DNA from: a virus
Lineage: Duplodnaviria > Heunggongvirae > Uroviricota > Caudoviricetes
IMG/VR virus record: IMGVR_UViG_2585427777_000007
Direction: 5' to 3' (one strand)
Length of the DNA stretch: 7,111 nucleotides
Part shown: in pieces, positions 1 to 7,111 of the stretch
How positions within the stretch are numbered: position 1 is the stretch's first letter
Layout: the number at the start of each line of letters is the position of its first letter
Position numbers and translations under genes: made by a program
The notes under the pieces: generated by a model
The model's database searches: none
Seen by the model: only the letters and a program-made list of their open reading frames with translations
Told to the model about the DNA's origin: nothing

Positions 1-477
1 CCGGTGGATGACGCAGTCTCCCTGCTGACACGGGGTGGCAGACTGAGCTGTAAGTTTCGACTGTCAGGCGCACTGACCAACAACCAGTTCGGTCTGGGAA
101 TTTATCTGTATACCGATGTAGCGTTACCTGACGTCGTGGCGATGACCGGGACTGGTAACCCGTTCCTGATGTCGTTCTTCACCCAGACCACAGGCGGCAA
201 ACTGAATCTGATGCATCACAAGAAAGCCGGAAACACAAAGTTGGGCGAGTTCGGGAATTACAGTAACGACTGGCAGACGCTGGAGCTGGTGTTCACCGCC
301 GGCAGTGCCACGGTTACTCCGAAACTGAATGGAGTGGCTGGCCCGGCATTCCAGGTCATAAAAGACAGTCTGACACTGGGGCTGAATGCGCTGACGTTAA
401 CTGATATCACTAAAAATGCCGCGTACGGCGTCGATATCGGCAGCCTGGTGCTGGAAATCAATAATCCCGCAGCATAA
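1..477 (+). CDS. hypothetical protein, 5'-partial (frame open to window start); not recognisable as a P2 lysis or tail protein
   Basis: Reading frame is open from base 1 to TAA at 475-477 (ORF track calls GTG at 4). A 23-bp gap containing AGGAGA precedes the ATG of the next gene, so it is co-oriented and probably co-transcribed with the tail module. The translation is Gly/Thr/Asn/Leu-rich and protein-like, but I cannot place it in a family. Confidence 0.45.
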   Translation, partial: PVDDAVSLLTRGGRLSCKFRLSGALTNNQFGLGIYLYTDVALPDVVAMTGTGNPFLMSFFTQTTGGKLNLMHHKKAGNTKLGEFGNYSNDWQTLELVFTAGSATVTPKLNGVAGPAFQVIKDSLTLGLNALTLTDITKNAAYGVDIGSLVLEINNPAA

Positions 478-500
478 GGAAGAGCAGGAGAGCAAAACAG

Positions 501-968
501 ATGCTTAAGACAAACAGTCTGCGAGAGTCCATGCTTCATGGGTGTCGGTGGTGCCAGGCTAATCCCGAGAAATTCACCATTTTCGTGGAGAGCGGCAACA
601 TTGAAACGACCGGGGAAACGCCCTCGTTTGTTTACCGCTATCAGATGGTGATGTTTGTCATGGATTACGCCGGAGAGCTGGACGACCTCACGCTGCCGCT
701 GCTGGCGTGGTTATCCGAAAATCAGCCACAGTTGTTGCTCAACCCTGAGCGTAATCAGGACATCAAATTCTCCGCCGTTATCAATGACGATGACAGCGCC
801 GATCTCCTGTTTACGCTCCCCCTGCGGGAACGCGTTCGCGTCACGCGCAGCAGTCAGGGCACACCGCAGGCAGAACACCTGCCAGAGCCAAAACCCCGCC
901 TGCCATCTTCCGAAGGCGACTGGTCGCATATATTCCAGGATGTGACGTGGGGTGAAAGCGATGGATAA
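501..968 (+). CDS. R: phage tail completion protein, P2 gpR-like
   Basis: ATG at 501 with AGGAGAGCAAAACAG upstream. 155 aa, with a central ...LPLLAWLSENQP... segment as I recall in the gpR family. Sits immediately upstream of S-V-W-J-I-H in the canonical P2 order. Assignment is from gene order and motif recall, not a search. Confidence 0.7.
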   Translation: MLKTNSLRESMLHGCRWCQANPEKFTIFVESGNIETTGETPSFVYRYQMVMFVMDYAGELDDLTLPLLAWLSENQPQLLLNPERNQDIKFSAVINDDDSADLLFTLPLRERVRVTRSSQGTPQAEHLPEPKPRLPSSEGDWSHIFQDVTWGESDG

Positions 969-1596
969 GGCATTCACCCGCGTGGATGAAACCTTTGAGG
1001 CCATCCGCGACAGCCTGAATCAGCAGGCCATCAATAACATCGCCAGAAAGCTGGCACAGGATTTACGTCGCGCCCAGCAGGCACGTATCCGGTCACAGAA
1101 AGCGCCGGACGGGACCGCATGGACACCACGCAGACGCCGCGTAACCCGGATACAGGAGCGCATTCGCTTTATCTGGAATAACGAAGCACGCACGCTGAAA
1201 AACTGGCATCACGACACGGGGAAATACGGGCGAACCATTACCGGGTGGGATGAGGATAAAAACAGCATCCGCACGTTTTACCGGGATGACATCGACCGTT
1301 TTCTGGAAATACGCACCCGGCGCATCAACCAGGACAGCACAAAGCGCGTCCCCATGTTCGTAAAACTGCGCACCGCCCGCTACCTGAAAGCCCGTGCAGA
1401 TGCCTCCGGTGTGACGGTGGGTTACAGCGGCGTGGCCGCACGTATTGCACGCGTTCATCAGTTCGGTGAGCGCGATCAGGTTGCGCCGGGCATTTTCACC
1501 GATTACCCGGTACGTGAGCTGCTGGGTATCAGCCAGGCAGATGAGCGCCTGATTTATAACACGGTGCTGGGCCGGATTGCGGAGGCTGTACGGTGA
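961..1596 (+). CDS. S: phage virion morphogenesis / tail completion protein, P2 gpS-like
   Basis: ATG at 961 overlaps the R stop (ATGGATAA); the ORF track's alternative in-frame GTG is at 952. Motif RRAQQARIRSQKAPDGTAWTPRRRR matches the basic Q-rich/PDGT-W segment typical of the gpS family. Ends at TGA 1594-1596, overlapping the V start. Confidence 0.7.
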   Translation: MDKAFTRVDETFEAIRDSLNQQAINNIARKLAQDLRRAQQARIRSQKAPDGTAWTPRRRRVTRIQERIRFIWNNEARTLKNWHHDTGKYGRTITGWDEDKNSIRTFYRDDIDRFLEIRTRRINQDSTKRVPMFVKLRTARYLKARADASGVTVGYSGVAARIARVHQFGERDQVAPGIFTDYPVRELLGISQADERLIYNTVLGRIAEAVR

Positions 1597-2174
1597 GCGC
1601 AGAACTCATGCGACTGCTGAGCAACATCATCCGCACCGGGATCATCTCTGAAGTTGATGAGAAGTCCTGGCGCGTGCGCGTTCGCAGCGGCGAACTGGAA
1701 ACAGGCTGGTTGCGCTGGAACACCACGCGCGCGGGAGCCTTCAATGTGTGGCTGCCGCCATCACCAGGCGAACAGGTGGTAATTGCCTGCATTGGCGGCA
1801 ACCCGGAAACCGCCATGATAATTGGCAGCCTGTGGAGTGATGCCAGTCCGGCCCCCGGCAAAAGCCTGAAAGAAATCGTGGTCAGCGCGCCGGATGGCGC
1901 GGTGTTCCGCTACGACGCAGACGCTGGCGCACTGAGCGCCAGCGGCATGAAAACAGCCACCCTGCAGGCATCCGTCAGCGTGACATTGGATACGCCCGTC
2001 GTGGAATGCACAAACCTTCTGAGAACAGCGACGCTTGACGTCACAAAAGGGGGAAAGATGAGCGGCAATATCACGCACAGCGGCGGCAATTTCACCTCAA
2101 ACGGTATCACAGTGCATACGCATAAACACGGTGGCGTTAAAGGTGGCAGCGATTCGACAGGAGGCCCGCAGTGA
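1593..2174 (+). CDS. V: baseplate assembly protein V (central spike/hub), P2 gpV-like
   Basis: GTG at 1593 overlaps the S stop (GTGA), with GGAGG 8 bp upstream. N-terminal ...IRTGII...W..W.T.RAG... and C-terminal ...KGGKMSGNITHSGGNFTSNGITVHTHKHGG... match the conserved gpV spike pattern. Lies directly before W-J-I. Confidence 0.85.
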   Translation: MSAELMRLLSNIIRTGIISEVDEKSWRVRVRSGELETGWLRWNTTRAGAFNVWLPPSPGEQVVIACIGGNPETAMIIGSLWSDASPAPGKSLKEIVVSAPDGAVFRYDADAGALSASGMKTATLQASVSVTLDTPVVECTNLLRTATLDVTKGGKMSGNITHSGGNFTSNGITVHTHKHGGVKGGSDSTGGPQ

Positions 2175-2521
2175 CAACCCGCTACACAGGAATGAATCCG
2201 GACGGGACGGGAAACCTGAACGATACGGAGCACCTGAAACAGTCAGTCAGGGACATCCTGACCACCCCGCTGGCCAGCCGGGTTATGCGACGGGAATATG
2301 GCAGCCTTGTACCTGATTTGATTGACGAACCCATGAATAACACCACGCGTCTGCAATGCATGAGTGCTGCCGTGATTGCGCTGACACGATGGGAACCCCG
2401 CATTGCCCTGGACGCCATCGACGTTGTCTGGAAGGCAGGAGGCCGCGCCGGGGTGACGCTGTCGGGCACTGTCATGCAGACCATGCAGAATGTTGAGTTA
2501 ACCATCACGCTGAGGGAGTAA
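2171..2521 (+). CDS. W: baseplate protein W (GPW/gp25 family)
   Basis: GTG at 2171 overlaps the V stop (GTGA), with AGGAGG upstream. 116 aa. N-terminus MTTRYTGMN...DILTTPLASRVMRREYGSL closely resembles P2 gpW as recalled. Confidence 0.85.
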   Translation: MTTRYTGMNPDGTGNLNDTEHLKQSVRDILTTPLASRVMRREYGSLVPDLIDEPMNNTTRLQCMSAAVIALTRWEPRIALDAIDVVWKAGGRAGVTLSGTVMQTMQNVELTITLRE

Positions 2522-2524
2522 ATC

Positions 2525-3421
2525 ATGCCTGCTGTTGACCTTTCCCAGTTACCGGAACCCGCCATCATCGCGAAGCCTGATTTTGAGGCAATTCTGGCTG
2601 ACACAAAGGCCATGATGATTGCGTCCTATCCTGCCGAACAGCGTGAAGCCGTCTCCGCCGCGCTGGAGCTGGAATCGGAACCCCTGAACGTTATCGCTCA
2701 AACCATGTCTTTTCGTGAAATGCTGTTACGCCAGCGGGTCAATGAGGGGGCACGCGCCTGCATGTTAAGCCACAGCGCCGGGACAGACCTGGACAACCTC
2801 GCGGGCAATATGAACACAAAGCGCCTGACCATCACTCCGGCAACAGATACCACCGACGCAGTGATGGAAAGTGACACCTCGCTGAGACTGCGGGCGCAGC
2901 GGGCGTACGATGGCCTGAGTGTTGCTGGCCCGTCAGGTGCATACGAGTATTTTGCCCGCAGCGCCAGCGGTCTGGTGCGTGATGCGCGGGCTATCAGTCC
3001 GTCTCCGGCAAATGTGACGGTTTCCATCCTGTCCACTGAAGGCGACGGCACAGCAACGGAGGCGTTGCTTAATACCGTTCGCGCCGTTCTGAATGCAGAG
3101 GATACCCGCCCGGTGGCCGACCGCCTTACTGTACAGAGCGCCAGAATCGTGACATGGCGGCTGAATGCAAAACTGTACTTTTACCCCGGCCCGGAATCCG
3201 AACCTATTCTGGCGGCGGCTGAATCGTCGTTCAGGAAGTGGCTGGCTGAGCAGGGGCTTATCGGTCAGGACGTGGCGTTGTCCGCCATTGCTGCCGCACT
3301 GCATGTGCACGGTGTGCAACGCGTGGAGATAATCGAACCCACACAGAATATGGCCATCAGCGACATACAGGCGGCGCGCTGTGAGTCATTCACCATCAGC
3401 GAAGGTGGACGCAATGAGTAA
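2525..3421 (+). CDS. J: baseplate assembly protein J (wedge)
   Basis: ATG at 2525 with GAGGGAG 7 bp upstream. 298 aa. Conserved segments (MPAVDLSQLPEP..., ...MESDTSLRLRAQRAYDGLSVAGPSGAY..., ...RPVADRLTVQSA..., ...HVHGVQRVEI...) match the gpJ family. Confidence 0.85.
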   Translation: MPAVDLSQLPEPAIIAKPDFEAILADTKAMMIASYPAEQREAVSAALELESEPLNVIAQTMSFREMLLRQRVNEGARACMLSHSAGTDLDNLAGNMNTKRLTITPATDTTDAVMESDTSLRLRAQRAYDGLSVAGPSGAYEYFARSASGLVRDARAISPSPANVTVSILSTEGDGTATEALLNTVRAVLNAEDTRPVADRLTVQSARIVTWRLNAKLYFYPGPESEPILAAAESSFRKWLAEQGLIGQDVALSAIAAALHVHGVQRVEIIEPTQNMAISDIQAARCESFTISEGGRNE

Positions 3422-4022
3422 TTCGTTGTTACCACCATCAGCCAGCAATTTCATGCGTTGTGCCGAAGCCGTCGGAACACGCATTACAGACATTCCGGTA
3501 GACCTCAACACGTTGTGGTCGCCGGACACCTGCCCGGTGCATCTGCTGCCTTATCTCGCCTGGGCGTTTTCCGTTGACCGCTGGGATCGCAACTGGCCGG
3601 AAGAGACAAAGCGACAGGTAATTCGTGATGCATGGCTGATACACCGACACAAAGGGACCATCAGCGCACTGCGAAGAGCCGTGGAGCCTCTCGGCTACCT
3701 GATTGAAGTAAAGGAGTGGTGGCAACTCAATGAGGAGCCTGGGACATTTCGCATTGTTGTCGGAGTACTTGATCAGGGCATCACCGATGAAATGTATCAG
3801 GAACTTGAGCGCCTTATTGCGGATGCAAAACCAGTAAGTCGCCATCTGACGGGGCTGGCGATCAGCCTGAGTGTGAACGGAAAGATTTTCGTTGGTACGG
3901 GATGCTATTACGGCGACGCCCTGACGGTTTATCCCTACACCCCGGAGTCCATTATTGTCGAAGGGGATTATTTCCCTGCCCCGGCCATTCATTTAATTGA
4001 TAATCTGAGAGTAAACGCATGA
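3414..4022 (+). CDS. I: tail/baseplate protein I
   Basis: The ORF track frame starts at GTG 3381, but the ATG at 3414 overlaps the J stop (ATGAGTAA) and gives an MSNSLLPP... N-terminus like P2 gpI. Conserved ...WSPDTCPVHLLPYLAWAFSVDRWD... and ...ERLIADAKPVSRHL... segments. Stop TGA 4020-4022 overlaps the H start. Confidence 0.8.
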   Translation: MSNSLLPPSASNFMRCAEAVGTRITDIPVDLNTLWSPDTCPVHLLPYLAWAFSVDRWDRNWPEETKRQVIRDAWLIHRHKGTISALRRAVEPLGYLIEVKEWWQLNEEPGTFRIVVGVLDQGITDEMYQELERLIADAKPVSRHLTGLAISLSVNGKIFVGTGCYYGDALTVYPYTPESIIVEGDYFPAPAIHLIDNLRVNA

Positions 4023-5833
4023 CAGTGAAATACTACGCCATTCTGACTAATCAGGGCGCGGCACGACTGGCTAACGCGACGATGCTCGGCAGTAAGCTGA
4101 ATCTGACGCGAATGGCCGTTGGTGATGCAAATGGTGTGTTACCAACACCAGACCCTGCACAAACAAAACTGATTAACCAGAAACGCATTGCACCGCTGAA
4201 TCTTCTGAGTGTTGACCCTAACAATCAGAGCCAGATTATTGCGGAGCAAATCATCCCTGAAAGCGAGGGAGGATTCTGGATCCGTGAGATTGGTCTTTAT
4301 GATGATAAAGGTGTACTCATTGCGGTGGCAAACTGCCCGGAAACGTACAAACCGCAGTTGCAGGAAGGCAGTGGACGCACCCAGACTATCCGCATGATTC
4401 TGGTTGTCACGAACACCGAAGCCATCACGCTGAAAATCGACCCGTCTGTGGTTCTGGCAACCCGCAAATATGTGGATGATAAAATATCAGAGCACGAGCA
4501 GTCACGACGTCACCCGGACGCCTCGCTGACCGCAAAAGGCTTTGTTCAACTTAGCAGCGCCACCAACAGCACCTCTGAAACGCTGGCCGCAACACCGAAA
4601 GCGGTTAAGGCTGCATATGACCTGGCTAACGGGAAATATACCGCTCAGGATGCGACTACGGCACGAAAAGGCCTTGTTCAACTCAGTAGCGCCACCAACA
4701 GCACCTCTGAAACGCTGGCCGCCACACCGAAAGCGGTTAAGGCTGCATATGACCTGGCTAACGGGAAATATACCGCTCAGGATGCGACTACGGCACGAAA
4801 AGGCCTTGTTCAACTCAGTAGCGCCACCAACAGCACCTCTGAAACGCTGGCCGCCACACCGAAAGCGGTTAAGGCTGCATATGACCTGGCTAACGGGAAA
4901 TATACCGCTCAGGATGCGACTACGGCACGAAAAGGCCTTGTTCAACTCAGTAGCGCCACCAACAGCACCTCTGAAACGCTGGCCGCCACACCGAAAGCGG
5001 TTAAGGCTGCATATGACCTGGCTAACGGGAAATATACCGCTCAGGATGCGACTACGGCACGAAAAGGCCTTGTTCAACTCAGTAGCGCCACCAACAGCAC
5101 CTCTGAAACGCTGGCCGCCACACCGAAAGCGGTCAAGGCTGCATACGATCTGGCAAACGGAAAACAACCGGCAGATGCCACGCTCACTGCTCTGGCAGGA
5201 CTTGCCACTGCAGCAGATCGGTTGCCTTATTTTACCGGAGCAGACCGCGCAGCGCTGGCAACCCTTACAGCTATTGGTCGCGCTATTATCGCTAAGGGCA
5301 GTATAAAAGATGTCCTCAATTACCTTGGTTTAGGAGAAGGCTCGGCGCTACCCGTTGGTGTGCCTGTTCCGTGGCCCACCGCCACACCGCCAGCAGGCTG
5401 GTTAAAGTGCGACGGGCGCGCCTTTACAAAAGAACAATATCCTGTTCTGGCCAGAGCCTACCCGACCCTCCGTCTTCCTGATTTACGCGGTGAGTTTATC
5501 CGTGGATGGGACGACGGGCGCAAAGTTGATACGAGGCGTTCATTGCTAAGTGGTCAGGCTGCAACATTTATTCGTACAGCTTTGCAGGATTATTACGGTT
5601 ACGATCTGAATACTAATGTCAAAGTAGGTATCGCTTTTGCTACTGCTGATTCTGTTATAACCGTTGGAAACCCAGCTAATCCTAAAGCAGGAAATAATAG
5701 CGATTATGTTCCTGCATCAGCAGATAACTCCATAATGGGTACTCAAAGGACAGCGGAGGATAATTTTACCGGGGCATGGATATCAATGCGCCCCCGCAAT
5801 GTTGCGTTTAATTACATCGTAAGGGCCGCATAA
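4019..5833 (+). CDS. H: tail fibre protein H (P2-like N-terminal anchor, tandem fibre repeats, tail-collar-like domain, variable receptor-binding tip)
   Basis: ATG at 4019 overlaps the I stop (ATGA). 604 aa. N-terminal ~160 aa (...MAVGDANGVLPTPD...GGFWIREIGLYDDKGVLIAVAN...EHEQSRRHPDASLTAKGF) match the P2 gpH constant region. Then five copies of ...VQLSSATNSTSETLAATPKAVKAAYDLANGK..., the phage tail fibre repeat. The C-terminal ...PAGWLKCDGRAFTKEQYPVLARAYP...LPDLRGEFIRGWDDGR resembles a tail-collar domain, followed by a divergent tip ending RPRNVAFNYIVRAA. Confidence 0.9.
   Translation: MTVKYYAILTNQGAARLANATMLGSKLNLTRMAVGDANGVLPTPDPAQTKLINQKRIAPLNLLSVDPNNQSQIIAEQIIPESEGGFWIREIGLYDDKGVLIAVANCPETYKPQLQEGSGRTQTIRMILVVTNTEAITLKIDPSVVLATRKYVDDKISEHEQSRRHPDASLTAKGFVQLSSATNSTSETLAATPKAVKAAYDLANGKYTAQDATTARKGLVQLSSATNSTSETLAATPKAVKAAYDLANGKYTAQDATTARKGLVQLSSATNSTSETLAATPKAVKAAYDLANGKYTAQDATTARKGLVQLSSATNSTSETLAATPKAVKAAYDLANGKYTAQDATTARKGLVQLSSATNSTSETLAATPKAVKAAYDLANGKQPADATLTALAGLATAADRLPYFTGADRAALATLTAIGRAIIAKGSIKDVLNYLGLGEGSALPVGVPVPWPTATPPAGWLKCDGRAFTKEQYPVLARAYPTLRLPDLRGEFIRGWDDGRKVDTRRSLLSGQAATFIRTALQDYYGYDLNTNVKVGIAFATADSVITVGNPANPKAGNNSDYVPASADNSIMGTQRTAEDNFTGAWISMRPRNVAFNYIVRAA
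4535..5164 (+). repeat. tandem array of 132-bp (44-codon) repeats inside H: 4 full copies plus 1 truncated/diverged copy
   Basis: Unit starts at 4535, 4667, 4799, 4931 and 5063. Copies 2-4 (4667-5062) appear identical base for base by eye. Copy 1 differs at about 4 positions. Copy 5 diverges after about 85 bp and runs into unique sequence. Confidence 0.9.
5313..5338. other. candidate site-specific invertase crossover site (hix/gix/cix-like) at the H constant/variable junction
   Basis: TCCTCAATTACC TT GGTTTAGGAGAA is a 26-bp imperfect palindrome around an ACC-TT-GGT core. It resembles, from memory, the AAACC-NN-GGTTT core of Din-family sites, and it sits exactly where cassette homology begins. 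Not verified against a consensus. Confidence 0.3.
5327..5525 (+). repeat. direct repeat copy 1 (about 200 bp, roughly 90% nt identity to 5841-6040): conserved 5' part of the tail-fibre C-terminal cassette
   Basis: Aligns to 5841-6040 with scattered mismatches, from ggtttaggagaaggctcggcgct... through ...ggatgggacgacgggcgcaa. Encodes GEGSALPVGVPVPWPTATPPAGWL...LPDLRGEFIRGWDDGRK in both copies. Confidence 0.85.
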
Positions 5834-5852
5834 AAACGTTGGTTTGGGGGAA
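5827..5852. other. candidate site-specific invertase crossover site, second copy, immediately after the H stop codon
   Basis: CGCATAAAAACG TT GGTTTGGGGGAA has an AAAAAC-G-TT-GGTTT core at the start of the second cassette, in the same orientation as the 5313-5338 site. Not verified against a consensus. Confidence 0.3.
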
Positions 5853-6040
5853 GGCTCGGCGCTGCCCGTTGGTGTACCTGTTCCGTGGCCCACTGCCACA
5901 CCGCCAGCAGGCTGGTTACAGTGCAACGGAGCTACGTTCACCAAAGAACAATATCCTGTTCTGGCCAGAGTCTACCCGACCCTCCGTCTTCCCGATTTGC
6001 GCGGTGAGTTTATCCGTGGATGGGACGACGGGCGCAAGAT
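5841..6040 (+). repeat. direct repeat copy 2 (partner of 5327-5525)
   Basis: Same alignment as above. The offset between copies is 514 bp, so recombination between them would fuse the second cassette to H in frame. Confidence 0.85.
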
Positions 6041-6317
6041 TGACGAGGGGCGTAAGTTGCTTTCATGGCAGAAAGGTACACTGGTCGGCGGTCATGACGA
6101 TAACGATTCTTCGCTTGATATCTCGTACATGAGTAACGGAAATAATATTGACTATGGCGGCGATAAGGTGTTTGCGGGGAATTACCGTAGCGATTATTTG
6201 TGGTACGTAATTCTGGGTGGAACAAACAGTCGCGCAAAAGCCGAATTAAACGGAGCATTCTTTAACATAACCCGCCCCCGCAATATCGCGTTTAACTATA
6301 TCGTGAGGGCGGCGTGA
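5844..6317 (+). CDS. silent alternative tail-fibre C-terminal cassette (tail-collar-like domain plus different variable tip); no ATG or RBS
   Basis: Frame is open from 5823 to TGA 6315-6317; the ORF track's start at 5844 is a TTG with no Shine-Dalgarno. The first ~65 aa are about 90% identical to H residues ~441-505, the middle is unrelated, and the last 14 aa (RPRNIAFNYIVRAA) are again conserved. It is in a different frame from H, so it cannot be made by read-through. Confidence 0.7.
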   Translation: MGEGSALPVGVPVPWPTATPPAGWLQCNGATFTKEQYPVLARVYPTLRLPDLRGEFIRGWDDGRKIDEGRKLLSWQKGTLVGGHDDNDSSLDISYMSNGNNIDYGGDKVFAGNYRSDYLWYVILGGTNSRAKAELNGAFFNITRPRNIAFNYIVRAA

Positions 6318-6323
6318 TACCGT

Positions 6324-6938
6324 TCAACTGGCAAGTGCCAGTGGCGCTTCCGGCCAGCTGATTTCAGGTGCCGTGCTGATATCCAGTGCGTTCAGCTCGT
6401 CGATATAATCCAGCACGGCGTTCAGTTTTGCCGTTTCTTCTGGTGTCAGACTGCGACCAGCACGCAGTTTGAGGTTGATAAGATCGACTGACGCCATCGC
6501 CTGTTTCACCCGTTGCTGGCGTTGCTGTCTGGCAACCTCCAGTTCTGCGGCTCGCTGCCGTTCAGTATCGGTTACCCACGCCTCACCGTTCCAGGTATCC
6601 CATGGCGTGGCTGGCTGTTTTGTGGTGGTGTCCGCCGGGTAATCACCCGGTTGGGTAATCAGAACAGGGTTACCGTTCTCCGTGCTGTATACCGTCTCGC
6701 CGCGGTGATCAGGCACATGCTCCCACCCGTTCAGCGTGGCAGTCCGGCAAACCACGTAACCCGAAATTGCCTCCGGCGGTGCATCGGCGCACGAATGTGC
6801 CGGAGTACCCACCCCAAGGGCGAGATACTCCACAGAGGATGAGGTGTATTCCCGGGTTTCCTCGTCATAGTGATATACAGTGATATCGCCCGCTACAGTG
6901 GCGATACCGTTTTCATCCAGAACTGCAGTGTTACTCAT
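6324..6938 (-). CDS. tail fibre assembly protein (Tfa chaperone, lambda Tfa / P2 gpG family)
   Basis: 204 aa. ATG is the complement of 6936-6938, with GAGGG 7 nt upstream on the - strand. C-terminal ...YIDELNALDISTAPEISWPEAPL and central ...W.HV.DHRGETVY.....NGEAWVTDTE... parallel lambda Tfa (...RVDTSTAPDIEWPAVP; ...DHRGKTVY...WNGTAWVKDTE) as recalled. Convergent with the silent cassette, with only 6 bp between the two stop codons. Confidence 0.85.
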   Translation of the reverse strand: MSNTAVLDENGIATVAGDITVYHYDEETREYTSSSVEYLALGVGTPAHSCADAPPEAISGYVVCRTATLNGWEHVPDHRGETVYSTENGNPVLITQPGDYPADTTTKQPATPWDTWNGEAWVTDTERQRAAELEVARQQRQQRVKQAMASVDLINLKLRAGRSLTPEETAKLNAVLDYIDELNALDISTAPEISWPEAPLALAS

Positions 6939-7111
6939 TAAACTGCCCTCACAATGTAATTAAGTGCAATGCTACGGGGTCTGACAGTGATACCCTTCGC
7001 ATACCCGCTTCTGATAGAGGTCAGAATAGTAGCCTGCATACCATTGTCTGACATTGCCATGACAGGATTGCTGAATGTTGTCCCGTCCGGCATTTTAAAG
7101 CTGCCCTCACG
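6938..7111 (-). CDS. 3' end of a third tail-fibre C-terminal cassette (- strand), 5'-partial at window edge; stop overlaps the Tfa start (TAATG)
   Basis: The - strand frame is open from the window edge to TAA (complement of 6938-6940) and ends ...GITVRPRSIALNYIVRAV, homologous to the last 14 aa of H and of the silent cassette. There is an internal ATG at the complement of 7091-7093. It lies directly upstream of, and is coupled to, the - strand Tfa. Confidence 0.5.
   Translation of the reverse strand, partial: REGSFKMPDGTTFSNPVMAMSDNGMQATILTSIRSGYAKGITVRPRSIALNYIVRAV

Follow-up and report, generated by a model that had tools for sequence, protein, structure and literature searches.

Why a tail fibre gene should be followed by further versions of its own 3' end, one of them silent and another on the opposite strand, is the question raised by this locus. 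The window, i.e., the whole stretch of DNA that was analysed, is one entire draft contig of 7,111 bp (JOST01000117.1) from a P2-like E. coli prophage; the contig therefore stops at 7111, inside an array of tip cassettes with which the V-W-J-I-H late operon ends. The locus is read here, with a probability of about 0.9, as a tail-fibre host-range switch with three sites and three cassettes, driven by a serine invertase of the Din (Hin/Gin/Cin/Pin/Min) type and present in one of its four isomers. This reading is based on the crossover sites, the in-frame fusions, the invertase beside the array in relatives and the other isomers found in otherwise identical prophages. The expressed tip, the silent tip in direct orientation, the convergent Tfa and the third tip on the opposite strand, which the initial annotation had placed at 5313-7111, were all found there by means of ORFs, Pfam, DNA repeats and protein comparison (Table 1).

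Table 1. Features of the tail fibre locus (positions in the window).
Feature	Position	Strand	Evidence
H, tail fibre gene: constant part (to ~5324) and in-frame tip t1	4019..5833	+	604-aa ORF, Pfam
Crossover site s1, H constant/variable junction, core TT 5325-5326	5313..5338	+	P1 cix match, pattern test
Tip cassette t1, expressed; 169 aa from site	5324..5833	+	repeat/protein comparison, 2XGF match
Crossover site s2, core 5839-5840, direct relative to s1	5827..5852	+	cix match, pattern test
Tip cassette t2, silent in the window's isomer; 159 aa from site	5838..6317	+	Collar domain; without constant part
Tfa, only tail fibre assembly gene, 204 aa	6324..6938	-	Pfam Caudo_TAP, E=3.5e-28
Tip cassette t3, 3' end only (last 57 codons)	6938..7111	-	ORF running off the contig end

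The product of H comprises a Phage_tail_fib N-terminus, five Phage_fiber_2 repeats and a Collar domain (Pfam), and an identical protein is present in a complete P2-like prophage. A terminator-like hairpin was observed after gpU, where it separates the convergent late operon from the cassette array. Within H, t1 is built of a collar N-block, a variable middle and a RPRNVAFNYIVRAA end, and both of its ends match structure 2XGF, the T4 gp37 tip. The ORF of t2 was called at 5844-6317 (+). At the DNA level, a direct repeat of 226 nt (5322-5547 versus 5836-6061, 88%) and direct similarity between the cassette 3' ends (5789-5840 versus 6273-6324, 81%) were found, and the 3' ends of t1 and t2 are inverted repeats of 6938-6979 (74%). 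Between the proteins encoded by t1 and t2, the N-block has 63/72 positions in common, the middle 19/72 and the C-end 13/14. The complete t3 of the relative L006 agrees with t1 and t2 at 65-68/72, 21-36% and 10-11/14, respectively; in relatives, t3 measures 172 aa and starts at the inverted site s3, which adjoins the invertase gene. Conserved tip ends around unrelated middles were thus confirmed (C-end 10-13/14), while the collar-like start, previously credited to two of the tips, is in fact common to all three, that of t3 lying beyond the contig end. A single collar domain is probably made up of the conserved N-block together with the conserved C-terminal ...NIAFNYIVRAA. The cassette 3' ends are conserved at the protein level, as shown by many synonymous differences among their 14 conserved codons. 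A role of these ends as recombination signals in the DNA was rejected for this reason, and also because their overlap with the outer half of the next site is confined to the stop and the 1-2 codons before it. An NCBIfam search of the tips and Tfa assigned no family. A survey of the cassette family covered 40 loci, with 2 to 9 cassettes each and at least 16 tip types.

At each cassette start, a 26-bp cix-like site is located inside the reading frame (...NYLGLGEGSALPVG...). Site s1 reads TCCTCAATTACC-TT-GGTTTAGGAGAA and site s2, whose outer half overlaps the final codons and stop of t1, reads CGCATAAAAACG-TT-GGTTTGGGGGAA (26 bp each); the site pattern matched the window twice versus 0.34 matches expected. 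The P1 cixR/cixL crossover is annotated at the TT core, and around this core cix (...ACC-TT-GGTTTAAGAGAA) can be compared with s1 (...ACC-TT-GGTTTAGGAGAA) and s2 (...ACG-TT-GGTTTGGGGGAA): in addition to the TT core, the cassette-side halves agree with curated P1 cix at 11/12 positions for s1 and 9/12 for s2. The published e14 repeat, AAACCTTGGTTTGGGAGAAGG, is the same motif. Only s1 and s2 fall within the window, as direct repeats; s3, inverted relative to both, is present in three genomes with the window's arrangement, i.e., L001, L006 and the orthologous prophage of EPEC O127:H6 E2348/69. Use of s2 is seen in relatives, the s2-s3 block being inverted in L002 relative to the window.

From these sites, the following mechanism is proposed. 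The invertase would exchange DNA at the 2-bp TT core, and presumably between inverted sites only. Exchange between s2 and s3 would flip the block containing t2, Tfa and t3, and exchange between s1 and s3 would flip everything. With C for the constant part, slashes for the sites and arrowheads for direction, the predicted isomers are A, that of the window (C/t1> /t2> <tfa <t3/), B (C/t1> /t3> tfa> <t2/), C (C/t2> <tfa <t3/ <t1/) and D (C/t3> tfa> <t2/ <t1/); from these four isomers, therefore, one constant shaft would receive one of three receptor-binding tips. In L006, the nested inversions measure 2,129 and 1,615 bp. The system is a multi-site one, with more than two sites, overlapping invertible segments and three alternative C-termini.

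When t2 or t3 was joined to the constant part and translated, the reading frame was kept in both cases, and complete E. coli genomes contain each of t1, t2 and t3 fused in frame to the H constant region. The constant-t2 fusion occurs as contiguous DNA in E. coli MS10860 (100.0% over 740 nt), with 17 further one-piece matches among the 40 matches listed. The constant-t3 fusion, followed by Tfa, occurs in U13A (98.8% over 778 nt), with 10 further one-piece matches among the 40 listed. These counts are of one-piece matches among those listed in the junction searches of E. coli genomes (ecoli_genomes); the totals of places covered to at least 80% (103 and 327) overcount true fusions, because the search joins nearby pieces into one place.

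Other isomers were found in closely related prophages. Positions 1-5316 of the window are 100.000% identical to L002, in which the order is t1> t3> tfa> <t2 <t1', and 99.944% identical to L004, in which it is t2> <tfa <t3 <t1. The presence of other states in backbones that are 100% and 99.94% identical implies recent switching. The arrangement is accordingly not fixed across related genomes, a possibility that the initial annotation had named as contrary to its proposal of a multi-site, Min-like shufflon seen in one isomer; three sites, three tips and other isomers in backbones identical over 5,316 nt bear out that proposal, and its alternative of a rearranged or degenerate switch found no support. 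Frameshifted cassettes were also observed in some relatives, e.g., in t3 of L004 and in H of L005.

The invertase, expected beyond 7111, is indeed present in relatives with the same arrangement, as a Cin/Gin-like gene directly after the inverted s3. A 199-aa serine invertase (Resolvase+HTH_7) follows the array in L002, L004, L005, L006 and EPEC, and an invertase is also found in L001, i.e., in every relative that extends far enough; in the window's genome, it would lie off the contig. With Cin, this enzyme shares 73.7% identity, with Gin 71.5%, and it carries the RVSTN catalytic motif; its NCBIfam search returned sub-threshold matches only. L006 shows the window's arrangement at 99.3% identity, and its invertase starts 411 bp past the window end. 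Projected from L006, the window's invertase gene would start about 0.4 kb beyond the contig end; likewise, s3 and the start of t3 are putatively assigned to the window's genome from the relatives. The remaining cassettes that had been predicted beyond 7111 are limited to the remainder of t3 in L006 and L001, the closest same-state relatives, where no further cassette follows, but a fourth cassette does exist in L002. Inversion may depend on Fis and on an enhancer. Synonymous codon identity reached 0.59 inside the region homologous to the P1 enhancer (cin nt 19-90) versus 0.43 elsewhere (one-sided p~0.02, with 7 representatives only).

While our comparison documents alternative orientations across genomes, their coexistence within a culture comes from the literature on the EPEC orthologue. 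In EPEC O127:H6 E2348/69, a P2-like prophage carries an invertible "shufflon" for which four coexisting variants were identified by sequencing and PCR (Goldberg et al., 2014, Genome Med 6:112, PMC4272514). The published inversions (NC_011601.1, 1891695-1893703 and 1892127-1893703) were roughly 90% and 49% forward in single-colony cultures (PMC4272514). Site cores were located at 1891695, 1892134 and 1893696 of NC_011601.1, and coincide with these two inversions. The EPEC prophage resembles the window in its R-S-V-W-J-I-H region (97% DNA identity over 4.2 kb), in the accession of its gpU protein, which is the same, and in its layout, which is that of state A with the same site motif (H with its tip, a silent direct tip, then Tfa and a tip in reverse, then the invertase). 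Its invertase shares 198/199 residues with that of the window's relatives, and it has three sites, four variants and three alternative C-termini like the window's system. It differs by its tips (T6-, T5- and T8-like, versus T0, T1 and T2 in the window), by a Tfa that is divergent on alignment and by fewer shaft repeats in H (521 aa versus 604 aa). The claim of a host-range switch of the Gin/Cin/Pin/Min type is therefore upheld by the cix-like sites, the in-frame fusions, the invertase of relatives and this orthologue.

It could be argued that nothing more than tandem and inverted duplication of the fibre 3' end is seen here, the cassettes being inert and devoid of any switching function. Apart from the presence of repeats, nothing speaks in favour of this explanation, which we regard as highly improbable: the middles are unrelated, the ends are conserved as protein despite many synonymous differences, the fusions are in frame with constant-t2 and constant-t3 junctions in complete genomes, isomers are present in identical backbones and the EPEC orthologue was demonstrated by experiment. 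A switch frozen in the window's genome, with an invertase or s3 missing or defective and the array left as an inert relic in state A, would fit with a contig that stops short of both elements, with the frameshifts mentioned above and with state A being by far the commonest in complete genomes (151 records match at least 80% of window positions 5200-7111). It is nevertheless unlikely, as the variable parts of L006, the closest same-state relative, are 100% identical to those of the window and are followed by an intact invertase, nearly identical backbones occur in other states, and the EPEC reference sequence is also in state A, yet its locus switches.

The origin of the isomers deserves separate attention. 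The 44 nt that follow the core are unlinked to tip identity across strains, the leader of t1 being AGGAG in the window and GGGGG in L002, L004 and L006. Such mosaicism just inside the sites needs exchange or conversion inside the collar repeat; therefore, leaders are also shuffled within the 226-bp collar repeats, by homologous exchange or by gene conversion, and isomers compared across genomes do not, by themselves, prove an origin by the invertase. Downstream of the leader, t1 and t3 are near-identical (97% over 216 nt). Hence the explanation that the isomers arise mainly from RecA-dependent homologous recombination between these repeats (~226 bp, 88-97% identical), with an irrelevant or inactive invertase. 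However, a conserved, intact Cin/Gin-like invertase flanks every array, each cassette opens with a cix-like site that has the TT core, and the constant-t2 junction of MS10860 is 100% identical over 740 nt to that predicted for exchange at the site. Besides, variants at ~50:50 and 90:10 in single-colony EPEC cultures would suggest a process far faster than RecA acting on short, diverged repeats. We consider this explanation quite improbable, and inversion by the Din-type invertase is retained as the more likely source of the isomers.

Among known systems, P1 C/Cin, Mu G/Gin and e14 P/Pin share with the window's system the invertase family (72-74% aa identity to Cin/Gin), the 26-bp site architecture and the cix-type TT core; as in the window's relatives, their invertase gene abuts one site. 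With sites inside the fibre ORF, inversion in all of them swaps the fibre C-terminus. In Mu and P1, there are two sites and two long Sv segments, and each segment is accompanied by a Tfa of its own (U and U'), whereas here three sites, short gp37-like collar tips (144-172 aa) and one Tfa are found; the canonical Mu G/P1 C layout, with an assembly protein of its own for each tip, does not apply. The archetype is the Min multiple-inversion system of plasmid p15B (Sandmeier et al., 1990, PNAS 87:1109; Iida et al., 1990). There, a Din-family serine invertase reportedly lies beside overlapping invertible segments with alternative fibre 3' ends, and the crossover sites number more than two and stand in both direct and inverted orientation, as in the window's system. 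The comparison of cassettes with this system was made by way of the loci of P1-like plasmids and the notes of the P1 record. p15B is a P1-type plasmid prophage with six sites and many more isomers, whereas in the window's system three sites would give four isomers, and the prophage is chromosomal and P2-like. Among the 40 loci surveyed, P1-like plasmids carry arrays of this cassette family with as many as 9 members, t1 among them at ~94%, in replacement of P1's C segment, and it is at the C segment position that the notes of the P1 record place homology to p15B. The R64 shufflon (Rci) similarly exchanges the C-terminal ends of one protein by multi-site inversion; its recombinase is of the tyrosine type, and the protein concerned is the pilV adhesin of a conjugative pilus, whereas the enzyme of the window's relatives is a serine recombinase (Resolvase+HTH_7).

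In this locus, several tips are accompanied by only one Tfa, which is often antisense. Each array carries one Caudo_TAP gene, always 3' of t3, which it adjoins in the same orientation in all relatives surveyed; it is antisense to the H/fibre operon in 2/4 isomers, including the window's. Sigma-70 promoter scans, whose scope did not extend to Ogr-dependent late promoters, gave results at or below shuffle expectation and detected no Tfa promoter, and a PDB sequence search with Tfa returned nothing meaningful. One rather doubtful suggestion is that the shared collar could be a universal docking module letting one Tfa fold at least 16 tips, the s2 x s3 inversion doubling as an on/off switch of Tfa supply. 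If so, A and B would not differ in the tip expressed, which is t1 in both states, but in fibre competence; alternatively, within the same suggestion, t1 and t2 would be Tfa-independent.

The system is already known, real but ordinary: the window adds no new principle, since the principle goes back to Mu, P1 and p15B, and was shown for this prophage family in EPEC. Its practical value concerns annotation and assembly. Indeed, silent cassettes are routinely labelled "phage tail protein" or partial pseudogenes, and draft assemblies break within the array, as the present contig does; once the three-site geometry is recognised, one can list the four isomers and the three tips available for receptor binding, and predict where the invertase should lie. 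The catalogue of at least 16 interchangeable gp37-like tips, with one collar and one site, could serve studies of receptor specificity and the engineering of fibres or tailocins. For the temperate phages themselves, such a locus is a bet-hedging host-range device, whose phage progeny would be mixed in host range.

The whole window corresponds to one draft contig of 7,111 bp (JOST01000117.1 of GCA_000713855.1), in which the late genes R, S, V, W, J, I and H of a P2-like prophage are present. The constant part of the fibre gene H is followed by three alternative tip cassettes (t1, t2 and t3) and by the gene of the tail-fibre assembly protein (Tfa). Both contig ends are intragenic, in a DUF6645-domain gene at the left (1–477) and in t3 at the right, and position 7111 lies neither at a crossover site nor at a collar repeat, the collar being the conserved start (N-block) of each tip. 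Since matching genomes have a median of three such places, the genome may also contain tfa-t3 in a second prophage copy. The shaft of H is encoded by a 132-bp tandem repeat (4534–5164; 4.8 copies, 98% match) giving the Phage_fiber_2 repeats. H comprises 521 aa in enteropathogenic E. coli E2348/69 (EPEC) and 664 aa in strain AR_0015, against 604 aa here, and a further relative (L006) has fewer copies of the repeat; the shaft length is therefore variable.

Features of the tail-fibre array in the window
Feature	Position	Strand	Description
H fibre gene	4019–5833	+	604 aa; Phage_tail_fib N-terminus, five Phage_fiber_2 repeats, Collar domain (Pfam)
s1, crossover site starting t1	5313–5338	+	TCCTCAATTACC-TT-GGTTTAGGAGAA, fibre reading direction
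s2, crossover site starting t2	5827–5852	+	CGCATAAAAACG-TT-GGTTTGGGGGAA, fibre reading direction
Second Collar-containing ORF (t2)	5844–6317	+	Start 10 nt after H
Tfa gene	6324–6938	-	Caudo_TAP
3' part of t3 ORF	6938–7111	-	Last 57 codons, leaving contig

The initial annotation had described 5313–7111 as cassettes with repeated ends and unrelated middles, and the DNA repeats and the tip protein comparison agree in confirming it. A 226-nt direct repeat of 88% identity (5322–5547 and 5836–6061) was found, and the 3' ends of the three cassettes are mutually related at 74–81%. At the protein level, t1 and t2 have in common 63 of 72 residues in the N-block, 19 of 72 in the middle and 13 of 14 at the C-terminus. 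The collar-like start had been attributed to two tips, which holds for t1 and t2, but the count has to be raised, as t3 has it too, its start being located beyond the contig end. Indeed, the complete t3, taken from a relative, shares 65–68 of 72 N-block residues and 10–11 of 14 terminal residues with the other tips, with an unrelated middle (21–36%). Besides, t1 (5324–5833) matches the solved receptor-binding tip of T4 gp37 (PDB 2XGF; E=1e-15 for the whole match), its N-block being aligned with the gp37 collar region and its C-terminal NVAFNYIVRAA with the final NIAFNYIVRLA, the latter stretch being weak by itself. Presumably, as the gp37 chain in 2XGF goes out to the tip and returns, both ends are part of the collar. 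A relationship of t1 to the "short tail fiber" chain 9cuy was also observed. The 14 conserved C-terminal codons show many synonymous differences between cassettes, and constraint therefore acts on the protein. The overlap of a cassette 3' end with the outer half of the next site is limited to the last codons and the stop.

Each cassette starts with the motif (C/G)TTGGTTT(A/G)GG(A/G)GAAGG. When the window was searched with the core and inner half of cix, the Cin crossover site of phage P1, allowing up to three mismatches, s1 and s2 were the sole matches (2 vs 0.34 expected by chance). The curated P1 sites read TTATCCAATACC-TT-GGTTTAAGAGAA (cixR) and CAATCCTAAACC-TT-GGTTTAAGAGAA (cixL), with the annotated crossover inside TT. 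The published repeat of e14 is the same motif; gix, the Gin site of Mu, resembles s1, s2 and cix, with TC in place of TT at the core. The sites fall within the reading frame (...NYLGLGEGSALPVG...), and translation of the predicted fusions indicates that exchange at the core would join the constant part of H in frame to t2 or t3.

The anticipated invertase past 7111 was indeed encountered in relatives, where a serine invertase adjoins the array; the contig of the window ends before it and before s3, the inverted site of t3. In AR_0015 (98.7% identity over 5200–7111, same arrangement), the t3 ORF is complete (170 aa) and ends at the inverted site; next come a 190-aa recombinase and then chromosomal ybjC. 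In L006, which is 99.3% identical to the last 2.2 kb and arranged likewise, the distances between sites are 2,129 and 1,615 bp, and the start of the invertase is located 411 bp past the 7111-equivalent. Projected from L006, the s3 core and the invertase ATG would be expected ~343 bp and ~411 bp past position 7111, respectively. The invertase of P2-like relatives (199 aa, Resolvase and HTH_7 domains, RVSTN catalytic motif) shares 73.7% identity with Cin and 71.5% with Gin. The stretch homologous to the annotated P1 enhancer has a synonymous identity of 0.59 vs 0.43 in the rest of the gene (p=0.02, with only seven representatives), which is no more than suggestive of an enhancer within the invertase gene.

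With s1 and s2 direct and s3 inverted, the array would give four isomers: A, the arrangement of the window; B, with t1, t3 and tfa followed by inverted t2; C, with t2 joined to the constant part and tfa, t3 and t1 inverted; and D, with t3 and tfa followed by inverted t2 and t1. The state of the window was found in 151 records. In strain MS10860, 99.944% identical upstream, the order is t2 followed by inverted tfa, t3 and t1, and the constant-to-t2 junction is the one predicted from site exchange (100% over 740 nt). A constant-t3-Tfa arrangement occurs in strain U13A at 98.8%. Among the 40 matches listed for each junction, the constant-t2 and constant-t3 fusions are each in one contiguous piece in at least 18 and at least 11 genomes, respectively. 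States A and C were observed directly in genomes, and B only as a variant with an extra t1 copy. This variant, L002, has an identical H protein (604 aa) and is 100.000% identical over the first 5,316 nt; its order (t1, t3, tfa, then inverted t2 and t1'), compared with the window, implies that the s2-s3 block is inverted. It carries two t1 copies (11299–11817 and 13441–13954; 98% identical to each other's template), one expressed and the other inverted and adjoining the invertase, hence four cassettes and four sites in total. As inversion alone is unable to yield two t1 copies, either a duplication or an unequal exchange involving different isomers must have taken place.

Homologous exchange also has to be weighed. 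The ~44 nt inside each site (5339–5382 and 5853–5896, and the same positions in the loci L001–L036) occur in several mosaic variants unlinked to the following tip; for instance, the t1 leader reads AGGAG/GCTACCC in the window vs GGGGG/GCA(C/T)TGCC in AR_0015, L002, MS10860 and L006. Homologous exchange or gene conversion in the collar repeats thus acts besides site-specific inversion, and database isomers by themselves are therefore no proof of an invertase origin. Site-specific inversion is nevertheless the main mechanism, in view of the conservation of the invertase, the similarity of the sites to cix, the MS10860 junction that matches the prediction exactly, and the high frequencies of variants in EPEC cultures. 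The reading of the array as an invertible tail-fibre switch is upheld by the sites, the in-frame fusions and the isomers in near-identical backbones.

Some loci depart from this scheme. In MS10860 (7358–7840), the annotation splits t3 into a short hypothetical protein and a partial pseudogene, and in U13A (4953–6560) the H-t3 fusion ORF ends early; these disruptions are either sequencing errors or silent-cassette decay. In one IMG/VR contig (L010), a Min-type invertase is followed by t3 and tfa, after which comes another constant part, with t2 and inverted tfa and t3. In another (L017), the outer half of the t3 site is similar to the constant region of a second fibre (GTTCTTGATTACC), inverted. 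Each of the two structures may reflect a chimeric assembly or an inversion involving two fibre genes.

Each array has one Tfa, always 3' of one tip (t3). In states A and C, tfa runs antisense to the H operon. A gap of 6 nt separates its stop codon from the convergent stop codon of t2 (6317–6324). A scan for a sigma-70-like promoter of the inverted tfa detected none. A 12-bp hairpin is located downstream of gpU (L002 14607–14636), with the convergent late operon on one side of it and the invertase on the other.

The system is already known, the Min system of p15B having reportedly been described in 1990 and that of the EPEC P2-like prophage in 2014. For the latter, cultures from single colonies of E2348/69 were sequenced, and the large and small inversions were ~90% and ~49% forward, respectively (Goldberg et al., 2014; PMC4272514). 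The EPEC locus (NC_011601.1) shares 97% identity with the window over 4.2 kb and has the same state-A layout, differences being confined to the tips and Tfa. Its site cores (1891695, 1892134 and 1893696) are consistent with the published inversion boundaries, its 199-aa invertase shares 198 of 199 residues with that of L002, and its gpU is the same protein as in MS10860 and U13A.

The tips of 40 loci fall into at least 16 types. P1-like plasmids have arrays of up to nine cassettes in place of the C segment, where the notes of the P1 record put homology to p15B. Related cassettes, including t1 at 94%, were observed in these plasmids (L025–L036). In AR_0015 (7640–11895), t1, t2, tfa and t3 are 98–99% identical in a different prophage backbone adjoining ybjC, with a differing invertase (84% aa identity). 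The array is a module that has been passed from one phage type to another.
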